Positions 7,000-62,725 of a stretch of 64,000 nucleotides of DNA are shown piece by piece. How positions within the stretch are numbered: position 1 is the stretch's first letter; every line of letters starts with the position of its first letter. The DNA is taken from NCBI GenBank assembly GCA_964016885.1, contig OZ024749.1:620001-684000 (forward strand), given 5' to 3'. The notes under the pieces were generated by a model. It saw only the letters and a program-made list of their open reading frames with translations. It had not been told where the DNA came from and made no database searches. Origin of the DNA: Eledone cirrhosa (taxonomy: Eukaryota). Made by a program: the position numbers and the translations under genes.

Positions 7000-8243
7000 C
7001 TAAAACAAAATAAAATTCAGTAGACTGAAACTGTTTGGAAGCTCGTCAATTGGACTGTACCTGTAATTCCTTTGAATTACAGGTACAGTATGCTGAATCT
7101 CCCTGAGAATTACATTAAGGGTACATGTGATTATGGAATGCTTAGCCACTTGCACAGTAATTTGATCAAACAATTTAAACACTCTTCATTGAAACCGATG
7201 GAGGTCCATTTTGTAAGAAAATGTTTTATCCAAACTCTAACTTGACAGACATATTTTACTACACCTCTTTCAAAATTCTTTGATATTCAAAAAAATTAAT
7301 AAAAAAATATAGACAGAATATTTCCACAAAATATGGTAATGAAAGGGTTAATTATACATCTCATACTGCTTCATATAAACTATGCTATTCTAATAAAAAA
7401 AAAAAAACAATGAAAAAAGAGTTTGTTATATAAGATAATAATTCATAAAATACAGAGAAATAAAAATTGAAGATAGGGAGTTGATTGTCAGATCAAACCA
7501 AGGAAACTAAGTTTCAATAGATCTTTCCATTGCTTTTACTATCTGCCAGTTGCAACTCCCAGCAGAAGTCGACAGAATTTAAACTGAAAAAACAGAAGTA
7601 GATGAGAGACCAATTCATTTACAATTCTACCCATCCACTACTCTGGTACATTTTTATTGATTCCAAAAGGAAGAAAGGCAAAGTTGACTAGTGTGATTTG
7701 AACTTGTAGTGTAGTGAGCCAGAAAAAATATTGAAGCATTTAATTTGATATTCTCACAACACTGCTAGTTAATCACCTTGAAATCATAAGAAAAAGTAAA
7801 GGGAGATATTAAAAAAAAATAATTGGATGGATCAAAGGAGCAAGTAGTGAGAAAAAATGTTCACCCATAAAACAAAAAGTACAGTGAAATACTAAATAGT
7901 AAAGTAAGGTCAATTGTTTGGCTAGTGTGTATGATAAGGGTGGCTATCAGACCATATAAGTGACTTAGTAGAAGCCACATTAAATAACTCAGCATATAAT
8001 TAGGTGACCAATGTTGTGGCAGAACCAAAGATTTTAAAAAAGCATCAATATTTAATAAAGGTTCTATTAGAAATTATAAGATTTGATGATGTTAATAATA
8101 ATAGTTTCTGATTTAGACACAAGGCCAACAATTTAATTGACATTACCCTCCCACAAAATTATTGGCCTTGTATATATCAAAAATCATTATTACTATTATA
8201 GATTAAAAGGAAAGAAACAAAATGGTAAAGAGAGCCTACATAC

Positions 8244-8491: not shown

Positions 8492-8807
8492 CTACAACAA
8501 AAACAAACTCTATCATCAACAGCCCATCATTAAATAGAATATATATATATATATACCTATATATAGATGTGTGTTTGAGTATTTATATATGTGTATATAT
8601 ATATATATATATTTAGGTTTGTTGGTTCACAACCGGATAGAAGTGGTCATTCCGTATGGTCAATCTTGATGCAATATTATGGAAAGTACACAACGTAGTG
8701 CAATTCACCCGTCTTCGTTTGTGTAGTTGGTGGTGCGAATACGGAGTTAATTATTATGAATAAAATAACAGGAGGTTGGACTCGTGTAAATCCTTGAAAG
8801 GTTTATT

Positions 8808-8865
8808 ATACTATGATCATTTCAATGACCGGGTTCCGTATGAATCCGGTGATATCATCAGGTTT
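8808..8865 (-). ncRNA. minimal type-I hammerhead ribozyme motif (family B)
   Basis: Reverse complement of the motif at 9070-9127, with one stem-I substitution. Confidence 0.55.
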
Positions 8866-9069
8866 TCGAAATATAACAAAGGAATATATAAAAATCCATG
8901 GGTCCGAAAATTAGAGACAGAGAGGACGACTGACCAACTAGCTGTTTTCACCTCGGTCAGTCGCCCTCAAGTTGGGGGCGACTGACCGAGGTGAAAACAG
9001 CTAGTTGGTCAGTCGTCTGCCTGATTTTCGGACCCATGGATTTTTATATATTCCTTTGTTATATTTCGA

Positions 9070-9127
9070 ATACCTGATGATATCACCGGATTCATACGGA
9101 ACCCGGTCATTGAAATGATCATAGTAT
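9070..9127 (+). ncRNA. minimal type-I hammerhead ribozyme motif (family B)
   Basis: ATAC-CTGATGA-[TATCACCGG...CCGGTCATT stem II]-GAAA-TGATCA-TA^GTAT. Stem III is palindromic and stem I is ATAC/GTAT. The base of stem II is imperfect. Confidence 0.65.
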
Positions 9128-9177
9128 AATAAACCTTTCAAGGATTTACACCAGTCCAGCCTCCAGTTATTTTATTC

Positions 9178-9217
<40 letters not shown>

Positions 9218-18700: not shown

Positions 18701-19110
18701 CTGGCGAAACAGATCTCTTTGGATTTGTACGCGTGTGTTATATAGTTATAGAGGTGCGTATATACATTTTAATTTATATTTTTAATTATTGTATGCCTAC
18801 CCTGCCTTCCTTAGATTATAGATTCCATACACTGGTGGTTTTCCCTGTTTTATTGATGACACACTATCTCTCTCTAGTGTGTTACCTTTTCAACATATTG
18901 TATTTTAAAAAGCTCAGGATTCCTTTTCCTTTGAGCACATTATTGACAGGGAATAACGAGAGTCTATAGCTCCATTAATTTATCGTGATATAATATATAT
19001 ATATATATATATAAATGAAGTATTTCCATCAGGAAGGTACAGGAAAAAAGAGTGCTCTATGTAGGCTACAGAGCCTATTAGTTATGTAATAAACAATATA
19101 AGATAATTAT

Positions 19111-19171
19111 TTCATTTACCAGTGGTTTCTTGAAGACAGATGTTGTGTCTGTCTTCAGTCATCAGAATGAA
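19111..19171 (-). ncRNA. type-I hammerhead ribozyme motif (family C)
   Basis: Minus strand reads TTCATT-CTGATGA-C TGAAGACAGA cacaaca TCTGTCTTCA A-GAAA-CCACTGG-TA^AATGAA. Stem I is 6 bp, stem II is 10 bp, and stem III is short. Confidence 0.7.
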
Positions 19172-19499
19172 TAAAAAACATGGTGTTTTTATTAAATATG
19201 GATTTGAAAACAAAATTTATGAAATATGAAAGTGAGGCTGAAAAAAAAAAAAACGGGCGAAAAGGAAATAGGGGAAAAAAATAAAAAATATATATATAAA
19301 AATATAAATATCCAGAACATAAACATACACACACTCAACTACGCACATATACTAAGCGTATTTGCGTCTACATAGAAAAACGGACAGGAACATAAATACA
19401 TACACAGATATATATGCACTCAAAAATGTATACACAGATACAAGCAGTAGTTAGGAAGCAGGAGTAACTAAATAAATAAATGAGAACAAAAAAAAATAG

Positions 19500-19833
19500 A
19501 AGCTACTAAATAGTCGGTCGTCATCTTGTCTCTGATTTTCAGCCCCATGGATTTTATCTGTTTTATTTCTTTGTTATATTTTGAATACCTGATGATATCA
19601 CTGGATTCATACTGAACCCGGTCATTGAAATGATCATAGTATAATAAACCTTTCAAGGATTTACACCAGTCCAGCCTCCTGTTATTTTATAATAATTAAC
19701 TCCGTACTCGCACCACCAACTACACAAACGAAGACGGGTGAACTGCATTATGTTGAGTACTCTCCATAATATTACACCGAGATTGACCATACGGAATGAC
19801 CAGTTCTATCCAGTGGTGAACCAACAAACCTAA
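19500..19833 (+). mobile_element. solo Penelope-type terminal repeat, same family as 8613-9182
   Basis: Reverse complement of 8613-8940, ending at (TA)n. Confidence 0.75.
19585..19642 (+). ncRNA. minimal type-I hammerhead ribozyme motif (family B)
   Basis: ATAC-CTGATGA-TATCACTGG...CCGGTCATT-GAAA-TGATCA-TA^GTAT. Confidence 0.6.
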
Positions 19834-19913
19834 ATATATATATATATAAGAAAGTAAAAGTCAAAATCAAAAACAAAATAAAGTAAAAAAGGGGGGACGT
19901 GTTGACAACGATA

Positions 19914-20011
19914 CTACAGCTGAGTAAACTGGAGCAATGTGAAATAAAGTGTCTTGCTCAAGGAAACAACACATCACCCGGTCTGAGAATTGAACTCACA
20001 ACCATTCGCCT

Positions 20012-20013
<2 letters not shown>
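19914..20013 (-). mobile_element. partial copy of the CORE-like SINE
   Basis: Matches 580-670. Confidence 0.8.
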
Positions 20014-20055
<42 letters not shown>

Positions 20056-21129
20056 CACATATATACACACATATAATCATACATATATACACACGTACAT
20101 ACATACATATATATATACACGCATACATACGCACACACATATATAGATATATGTACACACACCTACATACGCACACACACAATTAATTATAAGAAAAAAT
20201 AATAATATAAAATAAAAATTAAAATAAAAAACAATGGACAACCATATGATACAAAAGGCCGTCACATCAAAATAAAAATAAAAAATAAAAACTATACGAC
20301 TTAAGAAAATAAAAATAAAAATTATTATAAAGTTGACAGCGATACAGGAAAGGACACATTCACACATATATATATATATATATATTATATAATATAGTAA
20401 TAATAATAAAATTTTGTTTCATTCTTTTCCATTTATCGTTTTCGGTGCGCCCGTAAATCGTTCCTGTGTCAGTGTTGAACAAAAGGGCGACGATGGTTGC
20501 CGAGCACTGTACGGCGTAATTCGGGCTGATTACAAATAAACCGAACATTATAATAAATGTTCGGTAAACCCATACGTACATATATATACGTGTGCATGTA
20601 TGTATATATATATACATACTACTGTGCGTCTGTACACATATATGTATGTACGTATACATTATTTATATATGTGTGTGTGTGTATATATATATTTGATATA
20701 TATTTATCTACAATTACATCTACTTGTTTATGATGTGTTATGTAATCTAAGATTATTATTTGTTATTACTATTATTTTTGTTACTATCAATAATGGTATC
20801 ACTGGTTATATTGGTGCCTATTTCGTTGGCGACTACTTGAGGATGGTATTATGGATACAGCATTGTTTGCGTTACATTAGTAGGTGTTGGGCTGGTTGCG
20901 CGTGCATTTTCAATATGACCAGTCGAGGAGATTATTACAGCCTGATGATTGCTTGATATTTCCTTTAGTTGACCTAAGTTAGGTGATATTCTGCAGGTTG
21001 AGTGTGTGTAGATAGTATTATTTATATGTTTTGGTTTACATTGTGAGTAATATTTGATGTAAGACTAGTTCCGTCTTTTTGTGGGGGGTGTTTTATCGGT
21101 GCATTTTCCACTATCCTACATTTATAGAA

Positions 21130-21300
21130 ATTCATTGAACTTAATTTTTGCTGTAGATTGATTGATGTTGAGTAAGAAAGTTTAACAGTAAAGCAGTTAA
21201 GGATTTGGTGATATTTATTGTTAGGTGGTAAGTGCTTATCTAAGATTGCAAAGAAATTTTTTAGGTATTTGTCCCTTAATCTGTATGTTGAAAGGTGTAC
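21130..21300 (-). pseudogene. Penelope-like RT thumb/linker remnant
   Basis: Hand translation with one frameshift gives PFNIQIKGQIPKKF/FAILDKHLPPNNKYHQILNCFTVKLSYSTSINL. This resembles the PLE motif PF..FL.L.DKHFP...KIFNRNTVK.SYS. Confidence 0.65.
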
Positions 21301-22131
21301 CTTTCAATTAATCTGATCCTTCAAAAGCGGATCTAGTATTTCCTCATTTTAATAATACTATTGACTTCCAAACTAATCAAAATAACTTACATTCTAACTA
21401 ACCAAATTAACTTAATGAAAATCATATTCTTCTATCTAAACTATAATAAATATTCAAAAACAATATTAAAATTTAAATACAACTCAAATTACTATGTATT
21501 AATATCAACTAACCTGAGATCATTTTAGCCTTGAAAATTTTATATCACTCAATATTTTCCCATATTGGAATTACAATCCACCTCTTCTATGACTTACAAA
21601 CCAAACAACCTATATAATTAGTACAAACTTCTTCCTCTATCCAAACTTTATTCCCAATCCTAAATCAACATTGGATCTGAAAAATAAATTATTTTCTTAC
21701 TATATATGTATTTATGTATACATATATAACCTTGATTAAGAAACAAGGCTTGCCTTCTGAATTGGGTTTTTATTAAATATTATTTATTGAACATTACTTT
21801 CTCAAGTTAGCAATACAGTAACCTATAAATTAATCTAATAGAGTGGTATGATAACCAAATGATTTCCGTATATCTAAATTAGAACACCCATGTAAAAACA
21901 GCTTTATTTATTATCAACCAAAAGCTTTACATCCCTCAATTAAGACATCTTCTCTCAGAAGTTTTATTACCACCTAGCACAAAGCACTCACCCATTTTAT
22001 GATCATCTTCTTCTTCTTCTAGCCCTCTTAGTCTACCTCTTCTTTTATCCCTCTAATTCTACCTCTTCTTCTGCTTCTTCATCCACTTACTCCTCAAAGT
22101 ATAGTGGGAGCAGGACACACACACACATACA

Positions 22132-48946: not shown

Positions 48947-50113
48947 CACTTTAGCATTCACATTATTTTCAGTTAATCGTTAACTTTGCCTTTCATCATT
49001 ACGGGGTCGATAAAATAAAGTACCAGTAATGTACTGGATAATTGCTGTCCTTGTGCCTAAAGTAGAAACAATTATTTTCAGTTAATCGTACTCAAGAGGG
49101 TTATCAATTTTATTTGTTTGTAATTTTCTTTATTTTCTATGTGTAGGCTTGAAATTTTGTCAGTAGATGTTTAACTATCAATAATTTACAATTATATAAT
49201 TTTACCTGATTTTTTCTTTTGTTAAATTTGACTTTTATGGGCAGGTGAAATTAATTAATAGGGGCATTTGAAGTATCGACCAAGTGCAAATACTGGTTTA
49301 ATTTTAAATACGTTGTTTTTGGCATAATACTTGATATATAAGGATCACTAAATCTTATATCAGTGCTCCAGTAATTCCACAGTCTTGGAAATTGTTTTAT
49401 ACCGAACATAATATTTACGGTAAAAAATGCTTGCATTTCCGCAGCATCTGTCGGTCGCCATAACAGATCGGGTTTTCCTCGATTTGAAATCTGTTGTTGG
49501 GCATATCGATTAATCTCTTCTGCCACAACTCCGAAGAAAGTTTGTGATAAAAACAAAAAGAAATAATCCAATGCTTTAGCATTGGGAGGTAATGTGTGTT
49601 GTGGACCAGTATTTTGAATAAAATCAGGAACATGTATTGGTGTGGTATTTTTCAACCACGTTGCTATAATATTTTCAATGGCGTCCTTTGTTTTCACTTT
49701 CAAAATAATCATCGTCGGATGAAATTTCAGAAATATAAACATCAGGTTCATTTGAAGATAAATCACTAATATTATCTTTTGTTTCTTGTTCATTCTGAAT
49801 GTCGTCGAGTGTAAGACCTTCAAAATCGGTATTGCTACTTTCACAAGCCATGTTGATAAACAAAAAAATCTGTTCTACTTTCAACGTTAAAAAAAACACG
49901 TGTTGTTTCAAGTTGTTTTACTATATTAAGTGTTAATTTTCACGATAAGGGCCTAATCTCGCAGTAATCTCGAATTGACAAGATTTTGATGACAGTAGTG
50001 TTTATTTTTAGAACAATATTTTAGTGTGGGTCTTGTTGGCCTGTTTCAGGTGGTTTGAACAAAGGAAGGGGAAATAATTACGGCCGGTTTAGGGCAGTTT
50101 GAACACTAAAGGA
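48947..50113 (-). mobile_element. internally deleted piggyBac (N-terminal transposase fragment)
   Basis: TTAA at 48943-48946 and 50114-50117, with TIRs CACTTTAGCATTC and GAACACTAAAGGA. ORFs show an acidic N-terminus and LDYFFLF...EEINRYAQQ...W..T..EMQAF...YWSTD...YLHL. Confidence 0.9.
48981..49070 (+). mobile_element. 5'-truncated Nin-like SINE with 19-bp TSD
   Basis: ATTATTTTCAGTTAATCGT is duplicated at 48962-48980 and 49071-49089. The body reads GCCTTTCATCATTACGGGGTCGATAAAATAAAGTACCAG. Confidence 0.85.
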
Positions 50114-51382
50114 TTAAATGCCCAGAGAACTCAGTAGAAGTAGATGATATTTCCTTTAGCAACCAAATTAGCAGTGGAAGTGGGTGTTCCGAAAGTAGTG
50201 TAGCCAGAGTGAGAACAGGATGGAGAAAGTTCAGGGAGTAACTACCGTTGTTAACCACAAAAGGTTTTCCCCTCAAAATGAAGGGCACATTTACGATGCA
50301 TGTATACGAAAACCAATGTTACATGGTAGTGAGACCTGGGCACTGTGTGCAGAGAACTTGCGAAGATTGGAAAGAAATGAAGCTTCCATGCTTTGATGGA
50401 TGTGTAATATGTGAATGGCAAAGCATAAATGAACTGAGAGAGAAACTACGCATCAGAGGGATCAGATGCAGTGTGCATTGGTATGGACATGTGATGCATA
50501 TGAAGGATGACAATGACAGATGTATAAAAAGGTGCAAGGGGCTCAAAGTTGATGGAAGCTATGGAGTAGGAAGACTTGGGATGAGGTGACAAAAGCTGAC
50601 CTTGCACAATGGTGATGACAGAAGAATGTGGTCTCTGGTGCTCTGCATTAATACTGAAGACCCACCCTCCCATATGCAGATGCTGAGGCATACATTTAGT
50701 ATGCATCACCTTCCTTCCCATTCACCTCCCCCTCACTGTAATCCATCCACCCCTATACCTACCTCCCCAAACTCCATACATCTCCCCCACCCAAGTCCCC
50801 AATCCTCACCATAAAATGCTCATCCTGGAGCCATGACAAAAAGCATCCAGTCCACATTGTAAACTGGTTGTGTAGGTGTCACGTCAAAAAGCACCCAGTA
50901 CACATGGTAAATGTGGTTGGCAGCAGGATGGGCATCTAGCCATAGAAACCAGGCCCAAATCAGACAGCACGTCTTACCCAAGCTAGCGTGGAAAATGGAC
51001 ATCAAACGATGATGATATATTCAAAAGATCAATAAAGAGGGACTACTCAAATGATACAAACCTTTCTTACGAGACTTTAATTCTTATTTTATTATTCCAA
51101 AATATATATTGACTGTGGTATGGAACAGGTATGACTGTGGTCAACAAGTTTGTTTTGCAACTACATGGTTCCAGTGAGTGGCACCTTGGGTAAACCTTGT
51201 CAGTGAACAGTGTAGATGGAAACTGTCAAAACGTCTATTGTGTGTGAGTGTATGCTAGACTACTGTAGATATTAACACATCAGAGAGTAGCAGTTTGATG
51301 AAGCAGAGAAGTATATACTATACTTATAAAGGAGAAAAACAAATGTAATCTGGCAATGCACACAGCATATATTATAAAAACA

Positions 51383-52799: not shown

Positions 52800-55700
52800 T
52801 CATTTTCTCTACCATGCTGCCTCTCTATCTGTCTATTTTGCCATCAGATGCTACAGGCCATGACTTGGCTACCTACCTCACAATTTCTCTCCCACCCACC
52901 CCCTCACACCACCATAGCCTATTTGACCAATCAAACCTCAGCATGCACACACCCCTCCCACTACCAACCCCAACAAACCCTGCCGTTTCTACTACTACCT
53001 AACTCTCTCCTCCCCCGTCCCAGCCCAACACACCCTGCCATTATTACCACCACCACTGTTCTTCTAGTCCTGAATTCTCCTACCGTTATGTATGGATGAG
53101 CTGAGAATAAATGGAGCAACTCTGAATTAATAGATGAAAATGAATATGAATCTGCGAGCTACCAAGCACCCATGTGAAGCTCCAATTCAGAGACAGGAAG
53201 CACACACACACCCCTGCAAAAATCAACCCTTCCCTACGAATGTTGATAAATGCCCAAAACTCCGAGTTGGTACCATCAATGTAAGCACAATGAAAGGAAG
53301 AGCAGGAGAAATCGTAGCGATGCTAGAGCGAAAGGAAATTGATGTACGCTGTGTGCAAGAGACTAGATGGAGAGGAGAGTCTGCTAGAGTCCTTGTAGGA
53401 AAAAGTCAGTGCTACAAATTTTTCTGGGTGAGAAATGACGATGGGATGGGTGGTGTAGGTATACTACTAGCTGACAAGTGGGTAGATAAAGTAATCTCAG
53501 TGTACAGGGTAAATGCAAGAATCATTAAACTCAGACTAGTCCTGAATAAAACAATTACCACAATAATATCAGCTTACGCACCCCAATCGGGGTTGCCAGA
53601 CGAACTTAAGAATAGGTTTTACGAGTCCCTAATGTACACTACTGCTCTAACAAACGACAATGACTTCCTAATCATCGCAGGAGATTTTAACGGACACTTA
53701 GGTAAACACTGTGATGGCTTCAATAGAGGCCATGGGGTTGGCAGAAGAAATGAAGAAGGATTCAGACTTCTAGAATTCTGCGATGCCAATGACATGTCGA
53801 TATGTAACACAAACTTCAAAAAAACCCGACAACCACCTGATCACCTATAGATCAGGGGAGCATTCTAGTCAGATAGATTTTATCCTCATCAGAGAACGTG
53901 ACAGATGGACGGTCGTAAACACAAAAGCCTTCTCTAGTGAGGAATGTACCTCCCAACATAGCTTAGTTGTCAGCGACCTCACGGTCAGAACTAGACAAAC
54001 CTGGAAACAGACAGAGGCCAACCTGGAGAAGAAAGATCTGGAAGCTGCAAGACCCCTCAACCAGTAACAGATTTAAAGATATTTTACTCAACACCTACGA
54101 CAGTAAAGAAGAACAGATAGAGACATTCAATGTAGAAGAGCACTGGGAGTTCCTAAAAAATAACTTACTAGAGGCGACGGATGAGATCTGTGGCTGAAGT
54201 AAGACCACAAGCAGGAGGAGAGTGATTTGGTGGTGGAACAATGAGGTAGATGAGGCAGTTAAGGCCAAGAGACAGGCATGGAAAGAATGGAAGAACGGGG
54301 GAAGCAGGGTACATTACATAGAGACCAAGAGGGAAGCTAGGCGACAAGTATACTTAGCTAGGAGGGAAGCAGAGGATAGAAAATTCAAGCATGTTTTGCA
54401 ACGTGAGGACCAGAAACAGGAGGTGTTCAAGATTGCGAGACAGTGTGTCAGAGAGAATTGTGATGTCATTGGAGAGAAGTGTATCCGGAATGATAAAGGT
54501 GAGCTTGCCCTCACAAGTGCTGAGAAGAAAGATGCATGGAAGAGCCATTATGATAGATTACTAAATGAGGAGAATGCATGGGAAGAAGAGACCCTACTCC
54601 AAGTAGACCCTATAGAGGGGCCAGCAGTACAAGTCAGCAGCAGCGTAGTAAGTAAGGCAACCAAAGATATGAAGATGGGGTAAGCAACCGGTCCATCGGG
54701 TGTAGCTACCGAGATGCTGAAGGCATCTGGGTCTGTAGGTCACACTATAACCACACGTATTGTTAACCAGGTAATACTAGAAGGTGTCATACCAAAAGAT
54801 TGGTGCAGTAGCATCATTGTCAACTGCTATAAATGTAAAGGTGATGCACTAGATAGAGGAAACTATAGAGGTATAAAGCTGATGGACCAGGTCATGAAAG
54901 TAACAGAAAGAGTTATAGCACAGTTGATTAGGGACCGGGTGAAACTAGATGAGATGCAATTTGGGTTTGTACCAGGAAGAGGCACCACTGATACCCTCTT
55001 CCTTGTGAGGCAGTTACAGGAAAAGTACCTAGCTAAAAGTAAGCCACTCTACCTGGCATTCGTCGATCTCGTGAAAGCCTTTGACAGAGTTCCCCGTACT
55101 ATAATCTGGTGGGCTCTTAGAAAACTAGGAGTAGATGAATGGCTTGTGAAAGCTGTACAAGCCATGTATAGGGGAACAGTCAGCAAAGTTAGGATTAGCA
55201 ATGAGTATAGCGAGGAATTTAGCGTACAGGTTGGTGTCCACCAGGGCTCTGTTCTTAGCCCTCTCCTGTTCATCATAGTCCTGCAGGCAATAACGGAGGA
55301 TGCCCATGGGAACTCCTGTATGCAGATGACCTCGCACTTATAGCTGAATCTATGGTAGAACTAGAGAAGAAATTCCAAACTTGGAAGCAGGGACTAGAAA
55401 GAAAGGGTCTCAAAGTCAACGTGACAAAGAGCAAGGTCCTTGTAAGTAGACGAGAAAACAGAACCCAGATCCCCTCAGGGAAATGGCCTTGCTCAGTATG
55501 TAGGAAAGGCGTAGGTAGGAACTCCATTCTCTGCCCCAAATGCAAACAATGGGTACACAAGCGATGTAGTGGGATCTCAGGAAACTTAACTAAGAATGTA
55601 GGCTTCACATGTAGCAGTTGTGCTGGGACAGCAAGCAGCAAACAGCCACAGGAAACAAGTACCACCAAACTCTGGGAGGGCTCTGTAGAAATAGTAGACA

Positions 55701-56540
55701 GCTTCTGCTACCTAGGTGACCAAATTAACAGCGAAGGTGGGTGTTCGGAAAGTACAATAACTAGGGTAAGAATGGGATGGAAGAAGTTCAGGGAGCTACT
55801 GCCACTGCTAGCTGCAAAAGGCTTTTCCCTCAAAATGAAAGGCAGACTGTATGATGCTGCGTGTATACGAACAGCAATGTTACATGGTAGTGAGACCTGG
55901 GCGCTGTCTGTGGAAGACTTGCGTAGATTAGAAAGAAACGAAGCCTGCATACTCCAATGGATGTGTAATAGTAATATACGCGAACGGCAAAGCATAAATG
56001 AATTGAAAGAGAGACTGAGCATAAGAGGAATCAAATGCTGTGTGCAGGAGAGGCGGTTGCGTTGGTATGGACATGTGATGCGTATGAAGGATGACAGCTG
56101 CATAAAAAGGTGCAGAGCACTAGAAGTCGATGGAAACCACGGAGTGGGGAGACCCAAGAAGACCTGGGATGAGGTGATAAAAGCTGACCTTACCCAATTA
56201 CACCTCTCAAAGGCGATGACACATGACTGTGACCTCTGGCGTCCCGCAGTAATACAGAAGATCCGATCCCCCACAGGTACAAGCCGAAGCTGAAGCATAT
56301 AGACAATACACCCCCACACCCTCCCACTGCAAAGTGGTCGTGGAGGTGCCACGGCAAAAAAGCACCCAGCCCACACTGTAAATGAGGTTGGTGTTAGGAA
56401 GGGCATCCAGCTGTAGAAATAAAGCCAGAATCAGTTCCCATATGAGCAAGACAAGGTCAGCCGACCGGACACTGCCCACAAGACAACCCGTCTAACCCAT
56501 GCTAGCGTGGAAGAACGGACGTAAAATGGTGATGATGATG
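52800..56540 (+). mobile_element. near full-length RTE-clade LINE (APE endonuclease + RT + PHD-like finger), inactivated
   Basis: APE motifs: VGTINV, VQETRW, SAYAPQ, GDFNGH, SQIDFIL. RT motifs: NYRGIKL, QFGF, FVDLVKAFD, VHQGSVLSPLLF, YADD, FCYLG. C-terminal RRLRWYGHV and GRPKKTW, then a (GAT)n tail. Frameshifts near 53825 and 55297 and stops at 54195 and 54681. The 5' boundary is approximate. Confidence 0.95.
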
Positions 56541-56679
56541 ACTATAAGCAAAGAGATATTTAATTTGTTGGTTATTCAACAAATTTATTTATAACAGATT
56601 CGAAGCACTCTACAGTTTTCTTCTGGAGTATAATATCAATGATATTAATACATGGAAACTATCTTTATAAAACCATATT

Positions 56680-56740
56680 TATTTTATTATATATATTTCA
56701 AGGGTACCAAAATTTTGGTACGCACTCATCAGATAAAATA
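56680..56740 (-). ncRNA. minimal type-I hammerhead ribozyme (family A) in the inverted pLTR
   Basis: Minus strand reads TATTTTAT-CTGATGA-GTGCGTACCAAAATTTTGGTACCCTT-GAAA-TATATA-TA^ATAAAATA. Stem I is a perfect 8 bp, stem II is GTACCAAA/TTTGGTAC, and stem III is palindromic. Confidence 0.8.
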
Positions 56741-58073
56741 CAAAAATTGTTTTATAAATATTGACATATCCAAAAACAAGAACTTATCGTTTTAAGTTCA
56801 TTTTGGATAGTGAAAGAAATTTCAAATCTTAGGATGAAATATGTTAATGAGGCTAATAAAATAAATATGGTTTTATAAAGATAGTTTCCATCTATTAATA
56901 CCATTGATATTATACTCCAGATGAATTCTGTAGAGTGCTTCGAATTTGTTATAAATAAATTTGTTCAATAACCAACAAATTAAATATCTCTTTGCTTATA
57001 AATAGCTCCTTCAATGTAGAGCACCTTAAACTATAACAGATTGCAAAAAATTAATAATGGAATTTTTTATGATCTCTTCATCTCTCAAGGATGTACCCTT
57101 ACCAACCAATAAAGAATGTTTGAAACAACTAATAGAAAAATCCGATTATTTCATAAGGAGACTCAGATGGCGCGCTTTCCATTTTGATAAGAAATCGGAA
57201 AATGAAAAAAATATATCTGAATATAACTTTGATCTTATTTTCAAATCCAGGAAAAATCCACCTTTCAACAAACCATTAGCAAAATTTGAAAATGAAATAA
57301 TCTCCATAATACAGAACATTAAATTTAAAAGGAACCAGTATATAGTCCAGGAATACCTCAAAGACCTTAAAAACAAAATAGACAACGTGAATAAAACAAA
57401 GAAGATCCTTGTAAAATCTGACAAAACTAATAATTTATACGGAATAGAAAAGGATAATAATAATTTAATATTAATAATTTAATATTGAAAGAACTTAGGA
57501 AGAACTATAAAAAACCTCTTATGAAGATCTATCAACCCTAAATAAAGAAACTTCGGAAATCATTTATAAATTAGGTATTCAAAATAAGACTGAACCTTTC
57601 ATACCAAGGAAACCGAATATAAATATGAAGGACCACAAAAGAAATTTCGAAGTAGAACTACCAGTCAGACCATCTAAGTCTGATTTAGGCATATTTAGCA
57701 AACATATACGAGATAGGATTATACCAGCACTTAAGCAAAAATCACACCTTAAACTATGGAACAGTACAAATGAAGTAATAGATTGGTTTGCAGACATTAA
57801 ATTAAAACATAAGAAAAAATTTATACAAATGGATATTGCTAATTACAACTCCTCAATTGTCCCTAACTTACTTAATAAGGTACTTATTTATGCTTCAAAA
57901 TATACGGACTTATCTAGTGAAGAAATAAATATCATTTTAACCGCACGCAAAACTCTAATTGAATTTAATAACCATCTCTGGACAAGGGTTGACAGACAGA
58001 ACAATTTCGATATCACAATGGGATCATCTGACTCAGCTTAAGTAACAGACCTCGTTGGAATATTTATTCTTAA

Positions 58074-59305
58074 CGCTTTAGTGTTCAAACCACCTGAAAC
58101 TATTTCCCCTTCATTTGTTCAAACCAAACGAAACCTGCCGATAACACCCACACTAAAATATCGTTCTAAAAATAAACAAACCATCATCAAAATCTCGTCA
58201 ATTCAATATTACTGCGAGATTAGGCCCTTACCACGAAAATTAACACTTAATATAGTGAAACAACTTAAAATGTGTTTTTTTAACGTTGAAAGTAGAACCG
58301 ATTTTTTTGTGTATCATCATGGCTTGTGAAAGTAGCGATACCGACTTTGAAGGTTTTACACACAATGACATTCAGAATAAACAAGAAATAAAAGATAATT
58401 GTTTCTACTTTTGGCACAAGGCCAGCAATTACCCAGTGCATTACTGGTACTTTATTTTATCGACCCCGTAAGGATGAAAGGCAAAGTTAACCTCGGCGGG
58501 ATTTGAACTCAGAATGGCATAGGACCATAACTCTATGCGTCAATAATATTAGTGATTTACCTTCAAATGAATCAGATGTTTACATTTCTGAAATTTCATC
58601 CGACGATGATTGCTGTTTTGAAAGTGAAAACGAAGGAGATCTCCAGGATGCCATTGAAAATATTACAGCAATGATGTTGAAAAATACCACACCAATATAT
58701 GTTCCTGATTTTATTCAAAATACTGGTCCACAACACACATTACTTCCCGATACTAAAGCACTGGATTATTTCTTTTTGTTTTTACCACAAACTTTCTTCG
58801 AAGTTGTGGCAGAAGAGATTAATCGATATGCTCAACAACCGATTTCAAATCGAGGAAAACCCGATCTGTTATGGCGACCGACAGATGCTGCGGAAATGCA
58901 AGCCATTTTTTACCGTAAATATTATGTTCGGTATAAAACAATTTCCAAGACTGTGGAATTACTGGAGCACTGATATAGGGTTTAGTGATCCTTCTATATC
59001 AAGTATTATGCCAAAAACAATGTATTTAAAATTAAACCAGTATTTGCACCTGGTTGATACTTCAAATGCCCCTATGAATTAATTTCACCTGCCCATAAAA
59101 GTCAAATTTAACCAAAAAAAATCAGGTAAAATTATATAATTGTAAATTATTGATATTTTAACATCTGACAAAATTTCAAGCCTGCACATAGAAAATTAAG
59201 AAAATTACAAACAAATAAAATTGATAACCCTCTTGAATATGATTAACTCAAAATAATGCGAACAGATAAGCATGACATTTGAAAATTAATGCGAATGCTA
59301 CAGGG
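58074..59305 (+). mobile_element. internally deleted piggyBac inserted into the Penelope RT
   Basis: TTAA TSD at 58070-58073 and 59306-59309, with TIRs CGCTTTAGTGTTC and GAATGCTACAGGG. Same truncated transposase as 48947-50113. Removing it rejoins LVGIFIL-NVL...GLYRDD. Confidence 0.92.
58400..58542 (-). mobile_element. Nin-like SINE inserted in the piggyBac
   Basis: B box GAGTTCAAATCC and Nin-like GCCTTTCATCCTTACGGGGTCGATAAAAT. ATAAT TSD. Absent from the sister piggyBac at ~49770. Confidence 0.85.
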
Positions 59306-61461
59306 TTAATGTACTACATAGAAAAATGCAAAAGATGGCCAGAGGTTTATATCGCGATGATATGTTACTTATAGTCAACAACCATAGCAATAGCGAACTT
59401 AATAGGAAAAAGAAAAGTATCATAGAATTTTTCAATAATTACAACCTTAAATTAGAAATTGAGAATAATAATAAAACGGTTAACTTCTTAGATGTCACTT
59501 TAAACCTTAGCTCAGGTCTATATTACCCTTTCCATAAGATTAATGAAAATCTAAACAACGTAAGCTTCCATTCTATCCATCCTAGAAATGTAAAAAATAC
59601 TATTGTCAATAGTGTCCAACAACAAATTTCATACATTTCAGCTAATAAAAATATAATAATAGAAACTTAAATTCAAACCCAAACAAAATAAACCAAAATA
59701 ACAATATTAATATTACTAATAACAGTATTAATACTAATAATAATCATACCGTTCCTATTGACAACAACTTTGGAAAAGGTAACTGTAGAAACAAATCAAA
59801 TTGCCCTTTACAGAATAATTGTCTAGATAGTATATAAATGCATAGTAAAAACTAGAGATAAACTATATAGCTATATAGGAGCCACTTCTATAAAATGTAA
59901 AGAACGCTGGTATAATCACAAACATACTTTTAATAGATCAGACAAAAAATTTTCAACATCACTTTCACATCTAATTTGGTACTTAAAAGACAATAATATT
60001 GACTATTCAATCTCTTGGGGAATGATTTTGAAAGCGCCTGCATACCGAAATATGGCTCTCTCAAGAATTTGTCATTTGTGTATTGAGGAAATTTTTCATA
60101 TATTTACCAGCCAAAAACTCTATTAACAAAAAGAATTATTCAGTTCTTGCAGACATCGCCAAACCAAAACATTCAGAAGTATCTATAATCTATAGAAAAT
60201 ATTATCTATACCTCACTTGTTTACACTTAATATGTCTTCACTATGTTTTGTTGATGTTTTGCGATGATTATTAGATGTTTTTCTTTTAAGTGATATTTTC
60301 CAAAATGATACTCTTTTTAAATTGTTTTTAAATGATATTTTGAAATATAACTTTTTTGTGATAGTTCTAATGATGTTTCTGAATATACTTTGGATGTCTC
60401 TAATATTTCTTCCTTACAGACTATATAGACATTAACATATGCACAGATGTAAGTAATGCTATCTAAATACATATATAAAAGAATTTTTATTTTTGAAAAT
60501 ATGTAATACCTTATAATTTATATATAAAAAATGTTCTACATATATTCTGCATATATCTTAATTGAATATTCTTTTAAAGTAAATTCTAGTATAAACGACA
60601 AATTTAACCTATTTTAACTAAAAAAACACACTTAAATACTTCTTCTAAGTAACAACTAAACTTTACATAAATATTAAATTTTCTGTATAATATCGTTAAC
60701 TTACTAAACTTTGTAAATGTATTCCTATCTTGAAATAACTAATAATCTCCTCTAATAAAAATAGAACTACTTCCTTTTTCTTAAATATATATTGAAAATG
60801 TAAACACAAAATTCTTCGAAACCCTTAACTCACAGGAAAAAAACATATATACTCACCAAAATTATTTAGATGAATATTTATATAAATAACCAGTTGTAAT
60901 ATAATAAAATAAAATATACTTACAACCTTAATTCTTCATAAAATATACTTAGAAATATTATATATATATAATATTATAACTCACGATTTGAATAGATCCA
61001 ATAATTAGTAGTATCTCTCAATTTTTTAAATTGGTATTCCACCACTTCAACACATTTATAATTCTCATATATTTTATAGATACTACCAAAATATATAATT
61101 ATATTATATAATTAAATAAATAATTATAATTATATCACTCTCTTTACACTATCACCGATTTGATCCATACAATTATATTTTTATAATAATAGTGTATTTC
61201 TAAATATATTTTTTTCTTATACACATTCCTTATATTTTCTTACACCCTAATATTAATATTAACATCTCTCTCTTCTTCCCTTAAAAATAAAAAAATTAAA
61301 AATTATCCTAGCATCTAAATATAACGATCTTTTTCAACTGTACGTTTAGCCTCATTAACATATTTCATCCTAAGATTTGAAATTTCTTTCACTATCCAAA
61401 ATGAACTTAAAACAATAAGTTCTTGTTTTTGAATATGTCACTATCTATAAAACAACTTTTG

Positions 61462-61522
61462 TATTTTATCTGATGAGAGCATACCAAAATTTTGGTACCC
61501 TTGAAATATATATAAAAAAATA
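61462..61522 (+). ncRNA. minimal type-I hammerhead ribozyme (family A) in the 3' pLTR
   Basis: TATTTTAT-CTGATGA-GAGCATACCAAAATTTTGGTACCCTT-GAAA-TATATA-TA^AAAAAATA. Confidence 0.78.
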
Positions 61523-61923
61523 AATATGGTTTTATAAAGATAGTTTCCATTTATTAATATCATTGATATATAAAACATTTATGAAAGCTATTTATTAGTT
61601 TAATGAACATCACAGCAATATAGTTGAGAGATGGATAGAGAAAAGGATAAAGAAAAGAGAGGAGGGAGGAAGGAAGAGCATTTGTATAAGTCAATACCTT
61701 TTGTTTGACAAAGTAGAAAGTTGTGGTCGTACCTTCTGTAAACATCATCCACACACACACACACATATATATATAATATTATAAAGCTGAGCGTCGTGTG
61801 TATGTATTATGTATGTATCCTACACACCTCCCTATAGTTCCTAAGCTTTACTCTCTCCGTCGCTCTTCCCTCTCTCTATAATAGATCATTACCCCTCTCT
61901 ATAATTTAACTGCTTTACTCTCT

Positions 61924-62123
61924 NNNNNNNNNNNNNNNNNNNNNNNNNNNNNNNNNNNNNNNNNNNNNNNNNNNNNNNNNNNNNNNNNNNNNNNNNNNNN
62001 NNNNNNNNNNNNNNNNNNNNNNNNNNNNNNNNNNNNNNNNNNNNNNNNNNNNNNNNNNNNNNNNNNNNNNNNNNNNNNNNNNNNNNNNNNNNNNNNNNNN
62101 NNNNNNNNNNNNNNNNNNNNNNN
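61924..62123. other. assembly gap (200 N)
   Basis: Run of N. Confidence 1.
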
Positions 62124-62725
62124 ATTAACAACACAGCTTAACTCTTTCTTTTTAAACTCATTTCTACGGTAGCTCCTCCCCATTACTACGAAGTCAGAAG
62201 GACAATGTGACACGGGAGGGTGTGTGGTATCTTTGCAGTGGAGTGGTGGGGGCAGGTATACCTAGCTGGGCGCCAGCCAGATGGGCCATGTAGTATATAT
62301 ATATATAGCAAAGGTAAAATTATATACACATAGCTCAAATGTAGAGAATTATATATGATAGTATATAATTGCTAAGTAGTTTCAGAATTAGCTGAAAGTG
62401 TTTTTATATTACTGGTCTGAAGAAAAGGGAGATTTTAAAGGCAGATATAAACACGGAGCAAATATTAATTTTTAGTCACTCATTATGCCAATGGGTAGAC
62501 TTGAGATATTCCCCATCCTGTGTAAGGTGGGAATTGAATTTTGGATATATTCTGCTTCAATTTAATGTTTTGTTAATTCTCTGAAGATAGAGAAGTGTAA
62601 ATATCATTTTGTAATATCATTTTGTAAGTATAAATCTTGATTTTACGAATTTCCACCTAACATTATTCAAATAATTTGATATACAACTCTCTTGAAACAT
62701 GTGGAAGGAATTAAAAATGATTTAA

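Follow-up and report, generated by a model that had tools for sequence, protein, structure and literature searches.

A decayed Hydra-clade Penelope-like element whose ends suggest copying of a linear RNA begun at two places

The element at 56543..61569 of the window, by which we mean the whole 64-kb stretch of DNA analysed, is on sequence grounds one insertion of a decayed Penelope-like element (PLE), placed in the Hydra clade by its motifs. Its ends probably record the copying of a linear RNA begun at two places, and not of an RNA circle. We propose, with a probability of roughly 0.6, that each strand of a TATA target served as primer for copying linear head-to-tail RNA, one strand for each of two leader hairpins, and that the two cDNAs were joined head-to-head. 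The basis for this reading that can be seen directly consists of the extents of the arms, the lack of indels across the hammerhead ribozyme (HHR), the TATA(A) at both outer ends and a 3-nt microhomology at the junction. The inverted-arm layout as such is a known PLE layout, and it gives no special support to a circular RNA. The features are listed below, with offsets counted from the predicted HHR cut.

53134..56542, plus strand: flanking LINE with APE endonuclease, RT and PHD, ending in (GAT)n; the PLE adjoins its tail and is separate from it
56543..56547, plus strand: TATAA at the left outer end, candidate target duplication or priming microhomology
56543..56856, minus strand: inverted pLTR arm, offsets -168 to +145, long end at 56543
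56680..56740, minus strand: intact copy of a minimal type I hammerhead motif, with the cut predicted between 56688 and 56687 (AUA^)
56854..56857, no strand: head-to-head inversion junction with 3-nt microhomology TAA, including the predicted scissile position 56856
56856..57056, plus strand: leader at the 5' end of the forward body, starting at the HHR cut position and reaching the ATG (+202)
56914..56939, plus strand: leader hairpin 1 (RCHC stem, 2-nt bulge, GDGY-RCY), at +59, 4 nt 3' of the short end
57005..57025, plus strand: leader hairpin 2, at +150, 5 nt 3' of the long end
57057..58073, plus strand: PLE ORF, N-terminus and RT fingers/palm, with RWR and DKT motifs (profile iE 2e-32 and 5e-56)
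58074..59305, plus strand: later piggyBac-like insertion between TTAA copies at 58070-58073 and 59306-59309 (PF13843, E 1e-6), interrupting the RT
59310..59667, plus strand: RT motif C (YRDD) and thumb; the region of profile positions ~451-544 is missing after the thumb
59751..60183, plus strand: Cys linker and remnant of a C-terminal GIY-YIG-type endonuclease, with frameshift and stops (iE 5e-24)
61346..61569, plus strand: part of the 3' pLTR common to the inverted arm, HHR core at 61470, cut+1 at 61515, short end +55 at 61569
61569..61573, plus strand: TATAA at the right outer end, candidate target duplication

The inverted arm is a single ungapped run of 169 nt upstream of the HHR cut site followed by 145 nt of leader (BLAST E ~1e-101). 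Its reverse complement matches 61346-61569 at 215/224 nt without gaps and continues unbroken as 56854-57000 (140/147 nt), 90 nt beyond the end of the 3' copy. This alignment bears out the first-pass annotation, which had described one continuous run reaching well past the end of the 3' copy. That annotation had placed the arm at 56541-56856; the end holds, and the start moves to 56543, as 56541-56542 are the tail of the flanking LINE. The forward 5' copy starts at 56854-56857, an interval that includes 56856, the base directly 3' of the predicted scissile bond. This start at the cut site was absent from the first-pass annotation. From cut to cut the unit measures 3423 nt, to which 55 nt are added. 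The arms are 4-5% diverged, and an assembly duplication or artefact as their source is therefore ruled out. Divergence is alike in the two aligned segments (9/224 and 7/147, P=0.80). Clustered mismatches between the inverted and the forward leader had raised the idea of two donors, which was rejected, the clustering not being significant (P=0.08).

A pLTR-HHR-leader template had already been suggested for this arm, as a tandem transcript, an extended pLTR or a circular RNA. A contiguous head-to-tail 3'UTR-HHR-leader template stands; a special template (circle or extended pLTR) is less likely, the arm being an ordinary PLE pLTR-to-leader junction. Inverted pLTRs with a one-sided tail have been published for D. 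virilis Penelope and A. vaga Pen2a (PMC3846280, PMC2377424) and for the Hydra-clade Penelope-13_HM. Since the layout is already published and a head-to-tail template is normal, no circle is needed. Tandem genomic copies, proposed earlier as a check, did not turn up: there is one unit plus 55 nt and no other copy of the element's family in the 64-kb window, and a search of 55500-62500 for tandem repeats with periods up to 500 found no long-period repeat.

The coding region has the organisation of EN+ PLEs, with a single ORF in which a PLE-type RT precedes a C-terminal GIY-YIG endonuclease, and with direct and inverted pLTRs accompanied by a tail. Five collinear ORF pieces match a profile of 41 full-length relatives; tblastn was also used. 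The ORF carries a frameshift near 57480 and a stop at 58039, and a second copy of the piggyBac-like element lies at 48979-50117. Because Pfam gave no RT or GIY-YIG match on the PLE pieces, the assignment rests on motifs read by eye and on homologues. Searches of the PDB, a profile search included, returned nothing significant, and no homologue of the endonuclease piece was found by search. The RWK/DKT motifs of the Hydra clade read RLRWR and SDKT in the window, DK[TSG] being found in 114/120 relatives. The CxCX5C linker, present in 108/120 relatives and invariant in A2, reads G-N-C-X5-C-P, its first Cys being absent. As in Hydra-clade endonucleases there is no CCHH, and the piece contains IVYKC...YIG without the Cys pair, as well as CHLCIEE and CRH, which correspond to the clade's CxxC and CxH near the conserved E and N.

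The HHR of the inverted arm has its core at 56732 on the minus strand, with an 8-bp stem I, a stem II of ~10 bp and a palindromic stem III. Its CUGAUGA/GAAA core and AUA triplet agree with the minimal type I definition (CUGANGA/GAAA plus NUH), and G10.1-U11.1 replaces the usual G-C. Across the 64-kb window the motif scan returned 4 matches, where 100 shuffles averaged 0.01; it missed the HHR of the 3' copy, which has a substitution in stem I. Rfam gave no HHR match at the gathering threshold or at E<=10, and the single-strand MFE fold stands out only slightly (z -2.3 and -1.5). The predicted cut site coincides with the start of the forward body, and a second family is alike (2 of ~13 5' ends): there the end falls at +1/+2 (7310, in L012 7260-7310), in a family without a TA run at the cut site. 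Fourteen 5' ends were read by hand; the L012 end at -101 proved to be an alignment break, which leaves 13. At least two cut-site ends among 14 hand-read ends would arise by chance with P 0.3-1.1%; without the discovery case the coincidence has a chance of 7-14%. Most mapped 5' ends lie elsewhere, many of them upstream of an uncut HHR. These ends weakly suggest that a body start at the predicted scissile bond is a shared feature. In the window element the junction also lies beside the pLTR's one (AT)4 run, which an endonuclease directed to (TA)n would be likely to cut.

Both kinds of 3' end lie close to the leader hairpins. All 7/7 intact Hydra heads carry two bulged, covarying hairpin copies (one copy degenerate), and 8/8 measured ends lie 4-7 nt 5' of a hairpin. 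The pattern matches 9 times in the whole window, both strands included, and among 5000 leader shuffles 0.2% gave one match and none gave two. The outer 4 pairs are paired by construction of the search pattern. The first inner pair, left free in the pattern, is paired in 21/21 copies and covaries (C-G 13, T-A 8), and the 2-nt bulge begins with U in 21/21. Pairs were counted by anchoring; a MAFFT alignment had misaligned the 5' strands. The count leaves out the degenerate hairpin 1 of L006, and also the families at window 8811 and L004 8843, which do not match. Neither the Hydra hairpin pair nor a body start at the HHR cut was found in the papers searched. The main text of Craig et al. 2021 (PMC8557442) has 0 mentions of hairpin, stem-loop or palindrome.

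Hydra consensus 3' ends extend past the cut by 30-70 nt in 12/24 cases, by 88-153 nt in 11/24 and by 355 nt in 1/24. Compared with these sequences, the end of the 3' copy at +55 is the natural short site. The earlier proposal was to fall if the family's 3' pLTR normally ran through the whole leader and this copy was simply truncated; long 3' ends are indeed normal, and simple truncation does not apply to a natural short end. The 64-kb window holds a second inverted pair at 8598-9183, with ends at +214 and +60 and a near-perfect palindromic centre at ~8968. One short and one long end were found in 7/10 mapped inverted pairs, an asymmetry that is not significant against 50:50 (P=0.17); L002 (contig ends) and L006 and L013 (nested, ends unclear) were left out. 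Related loci include head-to-tail arrangements, in sequence in L011 and as a permuted contig in L003, and long-ended ORF-bearing copies (L001, L008, L009, L010). The candidate target duplication of the window element is 4-5 nt long, TA-rich and overlaps the element's microhomology. Hydra-clade elements favour (TA)n as insertion site; the window element ends in TATA(A) only, and most related loci end in (TA)n. Searching for a target duplication of the LINE to fix the empty site gave chance 8-mer matches only.

We hypothesize that the hairpins position the RT/EN. Synthesis primed by the left nick would begin at the long site (+145), on a template in which pLTR joins leader, and pass an uncut HHR before ending at -168. 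Synthesis primed by the right nick would begin at the short site (+55), cross the HHR downstream, also uncut, and copy all of the ~3.4-kb unit; its cDNA would then, with somewhat better than an even chance, run to the template's 5' terminus, created when the HHR cleaved at +1. That the 5' HHR was intact for one cDNA yet cleaved for the other would be most simply explained by a dimeric RNP containing two RNA molecules. The two cDNAs would then likely be joined head-to-head, and the piggyBac-like element, a deletion and point changes would later have inactivated the ORF. Against this reading, HHR cleavage is dispensable in vitro and no RNA-seq reads end at the cut (Frangieh et al. 2024, PMC11167929). 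Initiation in that system also proceeds without target homology (PMC11167929), whereas the ends of the window element show TA microhomology. A more tentative proposal, to which we give rather less than an even chance, is that the duplicated bulged hairpin is the RT/EN landing pad of Hydra PLEs, with a dimer priming 4-7 nt upstream of each copy from opposite strands, and that the scissile-bond 5' ends are fossils of in vivo HHR cleavage, the cleaved RNA having been reverse-transcribed. If true, such a landing pad would explain the PLE tail and the pairing of one short with one long inverted end. Each copy would also lose its priming hairpin, and only complete head-to-tail templates, tandem or circular, could give rise again to long-ended coding copies.

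End-to-end template jumping on a fully cut monomer is disfavoured because both HHR junctions are free of indels; such jumping is expected to add bases, as work on R2 indicates. Alternatively, both HHRs could be cut and the monomer ligated into a circle, on which RT starting at +55 and +145 would traverse the re-formed junction; Cervera and de la Pena (2014) put forward this circular-RNA option for PLEs. In its favour, the downstream-type junctions are both seamless, the unit of 3423 nt plus 55 nt is slightly over one round, animal retrozyme circles with type I HHRs exist, and the long-ended ORF copies would need ORF-HHR-head templates if hairpin 2 is required. However, RT would pass the ligation point once and would have to halt exactly there the second time, the head-to-tail loci already supply junction templates, and minimal HHRs are poor self-cleavers in vitro (Cervera and de la Pena 2014). 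We consider a circle rather unlikely for the window element; the stop of the body at the cut site counts mildly against it and is what a linear RNA with a cleaved 5' end would give. An extended pLTR as template would be unlikely if a hairpin 3' of the priming site is required. It is unlikely, too, that two-site priming took place on uncut RNA and that the cut-site junction is a coincidence of EN nicking or slippage at the stem III (AT)4, or of chance microhomology. The sole (AT)4 run does end at the junction, TAA occurs 18 times in 370 nt, and Anolis can dispense with HHR cleavage, but the L012 end at 7310 belongs to a family with no TA run there, and the 0.3-1.1% probability of at least two such ends in 14 speaks against coincidence.

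Self-priming onto an antisense template was proposed by Arkhipova (2013). In a one-strand version of this fold-back, a truncated long-site cDNA would switch to an antisense template and the endonuclease would resolve the product at the short site. Palindromic junctions and EN-mediated tail resolution are published ideas, and the 8598-9183 pair has the corresponding centre. The centre of the window element, with a 164-nt spacer, is not palindromic; its forward part is the whole sense unit and would need a full-length antisense template; and extension of both strands is seen in vitro. We find this version quite improbable here. Large palindromes are unstable, and a symmetric palindrome could have lost the upstream half of its forward pLTR after insertion by microhomology deletion, with or without later truncation of the 3' copy. 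The 3-nt junction microhomology and the decay of a copy 4-5% diverged are compatible with such changes. Against them, the 3' copy stops 4 nt short of hairpin 1, where the conserved short site lies, and has TATAA in the flank, and a random deletion would fall in the 4-nt cut-site window ~1% of the time, which makes this the least probable origin of the layout.

Two questions are open in the literature, how PLE tails and tandem or inverted ends form and whether weak minimal hammerheads act in vivo. The spacing of hairpins and ends touches the former, and the cut-site 5' ends the latter. The fixed 4-7-nt spacing to both ends and the peak of 5' ends that is predicted at the scissile bond make both testable. 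The hairpin pair could also be used as a boundary marker in annotating Hydra PLEs.

Non-LTR retrozymes (PMC7229834; bioRxiv 10.64898/2026.07.22.740005) share with the window element a type I HHR, a relation to PLE pLTRs and tandem organisation. Unlike it, they are non-coding tandem arrays with demonstrated circles; the window element is a coding PLE with an inverted arm, whose layout gives no sign of a circle. A. vaga Pen2a and D. virilis Penelope (PMC3846280, PMC2377424) keep a direct 5' pLTR and palindromic junctions, whereas the direct 5' copy in the window starts at the HHR cut position and has no HHR. In the Anolis Poseidon PAc (Frangieh et al. 2024, PMC11167929), as proposed here, both strands of an AT-rich target are cleaved and extended, and two internal RT start sites lie downstream of the HHR, the tail being the stretch between them. 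PAc differs in initiating in an AC-rich stem-loop without target homology and in having no ends at the HHR cut (PMC11167929). The ends described here, in contrast, have TA microhomology; they precede a hairpin of another kind, which is repeated, and at two genomic loci the 5' end coincides with the cut. L1 twin priming produces inversions by priming from both target strands, as we propose for the window PLE. R2 with its HDV-like ribozyme (PMC3774820) resembles the window element in that the ribozyme sets an RNA 5' end matching the genomic 5' junction. R2 and L1 differ by priming at the RNA 3' end and by using other endonucleases, and they are not known to duplicate a leader segment as a tail. 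The Hydra-clade PLEs (PMC8557442; Penelope-13_HM, Hydra-1_Obim) share the RWK-like motif, DKT, a Cys linker (without its first Cys in the window element), the lack of CCHH, the C-terminal GIY-YIG, the HHR in the pLTR and a putative TA target, and in Penelope-13_HM a 5'-truncated copy lies inverted, its HHR antisense (PMC8557442). Compared with them, the window element has a longer unit, ~3.4 kb with a ~1.3-kb 3'UTR against generally <3 kb in the published families, and a tail of 90 nt against 30-40.

The decayed PLE and its surroundings are laid out as follows.

53134-56542, near full-length LINE with an APE endonuclease, RT and then a PHD finger; its (GAT)n tail is the left flank of the PLE
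56543-56856, minus strand, inverted pLTR arm
56854-56857, start of the forward body (predicted scissile position, 56856)
57057 to about 60183, five ORF pieces
58074-59305, piggyBac-like element flanked by TTAA copies (58070 and 59306)
59690-59750, Asn-rich (AAT)n tract separating thumb and endonuclease
60183-61346, 3'UTR
61346-61569, 3' pLTR copy

The ORF pieces are collinear with a profile built from 41 full-length relatives. A search with the RT piece matched only an Octopus sinensis protein, which as query returned 244 proteins, 120 of them listed. The motifs (RWR, DKT, YRDD, CxxC, CxH and a Cys linker whose first Cys is missing here), with no Cys pair read between GIY and YIG, fit the Hydra clade as Craig et al. 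2021 (PMC8557442) define it. The copy is inactive because of the piggyBac-like insertion, frameshifts, stops and a lost thumb segment. The piggyBac-like element has a second copy at 48979-50117 (84-92% identical), each with a short repeat frequent across the window, and several 3' fragments of the LINE lie elsewhere in the window. The Asn-rich tract, also present in the relative proteins P0003, P0005 and P0006, resembles the N-rich inserts of Adineta PLEs. The 3'UTR (about 1.3 kb, strongly AT-rich) is much longer than in the published Hydra consensi examined, and is possibly captured DNA or an unrecognised insert.

The inverted copy, described in the first-pass annotation as one continuous run, is real: starting at 56543, its reverse complement matches the 3' copy without gaps (215/224 identical) and goes on unbroken into 56854-57000 (140/147). 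With the first base past the predicted HHR cut as +1, it extends from -168 to +145. The 3' copy stops at +55, the first base of the forward copy falls between -1 and +2, and the ATG is at +202. TATAA is found at both outer ends. An inverted pLTR with a one-sided tail is not unusual among PLEs. Craig et al. 2021 describe a 5' end bearing an inverted, 5'-truncated copy, with the tail frequently at one end only, and their supplement gives an inverted copy and an antisense HHR for Penelope-13_HM of the Hydra clade; Arkhipova 2013 describes the same layout for Pen2a. Among the 24 Hydra consensi of Craig Files S1/S2, the end lies 30-70 nt past the cut in 12, 88-153 nt in 11 and 355 nt in one, classes that bracket our +55 and +145.

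A scan of genome contigs gave 13 related loci (L001-L013), probably animal DNA binned into bacterial genome records. All seven intact heads (window, L001, L003, L006, L007, L009, L011) have a duplicated hairpin (RCHC-stem-[UN bulge]-GDGY-RCY) between HHR and ATG, one L006 copy being degenerate and escaping the search pattern. Among 5000 leader shuffles, 0.2% had one match and none had two. The first inner pair, outside the pattern constraint, is paired in 21/21 copies and covaries (C-G 13, T-A 8); the next two are kept in 17/21. The motif was seen by eye in 4/6 Hydra consensi of File S7. Each of the eight measured ends falls 4-7 nt to the 5' side of a hairpin, copy 1 for the short ends and copy 2 for the long ones (in the window, +55/+59 and +145/+150). 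A hairpin may be needed 3' of the priming site. If so, the long arm could be primed solely on a genuine pLTR-head junction, and the long-ended coding copies L001, L008, L009 and L010 would need full head-to-tail templates, an arrangement found in L011 and also in L003, there as a permuted contig. The tandem template proposed in the first-pass annotation thus stays viable at family level, and no circle is needed.

Similar asymmetry is seen at 8598-9183, in an unrelated inverted pair that carries an HHR (ends +214 and +60). This pair lacks an ORF, is embedded in (TA)n and has its palindromic centre near 8968. A third copy of that family (19513-19848) has a long end, and the Hydra hairpin is absent from the family. 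Both outer ends could be read in ten inverted pairs (two in the window, eight in L004, L008, L010 and L012). Seven of these combine a short with a long end and three have like ends (P=0.17 against 50:50); the arm carrying the long end, inverted or direct, varies between pairs. L010 also holds a tail-only inverted arm (77-129, +107 to about +55) fused to a 5'-truncated ORF. The solo Hydra unit at 3883-6445 of L009 begins at hairpin 1 following (TA)n and ends at the long site; its tail is therefore directly duplicated, as in the Penelope form termed 'ancient' (Schostak 2008, Fig. 1A). In L004, L012 and L013, PLEs are nested in one another's (TA)n ends, and one of the HHRs in L012 corresponds to the published motif of Hydra-2_Amil. 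On the minus strand of the window, 19013-21303 holds the remains of a second Hydra-type ORF (21025-21303) together with an HHR (core 19165) accompanied by hairpin 1, with a long end at +104 within (TA)n; both probably belong to one element.

The HHR of the PLE is a predicted minimal type I motif (8-bp stem I, AUA triplet, palindromic stems II and III). An Rfam search did not detect it; the window holds four HHR-type motifs against 0.01 per shuffle. The forward body begins inside a 4-nt interval that includes the scissile position (chance about 1% over 370 nt). An inverted piece of another family (L012, 7260-7310) runs from +51 to exactly +1/+2. That the junction meets the cut by coincidence is unlikely; an (AT)4 run ending at the forward-body start favours coincidence, and no run of this type occurs at the L012 end. 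About 13 hand-read 5' ends lie within -119 to +230, two of them on the cut; for n=14, two such ends have P 0.3-1.1%, rising to 7-14% with the discovery case removed. Most 5' ends fall elsewhere and come from read-through of an uncut HHR, in keeping with weak cleavage. In Frangieh et al. 2024 (PMC11167929), on an Anolis PLE protein in vitro, RNA ends at the cut were not seen, both strands were cleaved and extended, and RT initiated at two internal sites, the tail being the stretch between them.

We think, with a probability of about 0.6, that the template was linear RNA, that each strand of the TATA site primed a cDNA on it, and that the two cDNAs were then joined. The first would have started at +145 and stopped at -168; the second would have begun at +55 and run off at +1 after copying the 3423-nt unit, their 3' ends joining via TAA. 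This joining recalls L1 twin priming. The suggestion that the template crossed tail, HHR and head was partly right, though ordinary; its circular version is unsupported for this element. A circular template, already put forward by Cervera and de la Pena 2014, is improbable here, as RT must cross the ligation point the first time yet halt there the second. A fold-back origin seems quite improbable, and deletion after insertion very much so.

Neither the twin hairpin nor genomic PLE ends that coincide with the HHR cut are reported in the literature searched; paywalled articles, figures of supplements and supplementary bioRxiv files lay outside that search and may affect novelty. For a 5' junction set by a ribozyme, R2 provides a precedent (PMC3774820). 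In summary, the hairpin rule and the cut-site ends are modest additions, open to test, to a layout that is itself already known for PLEs.
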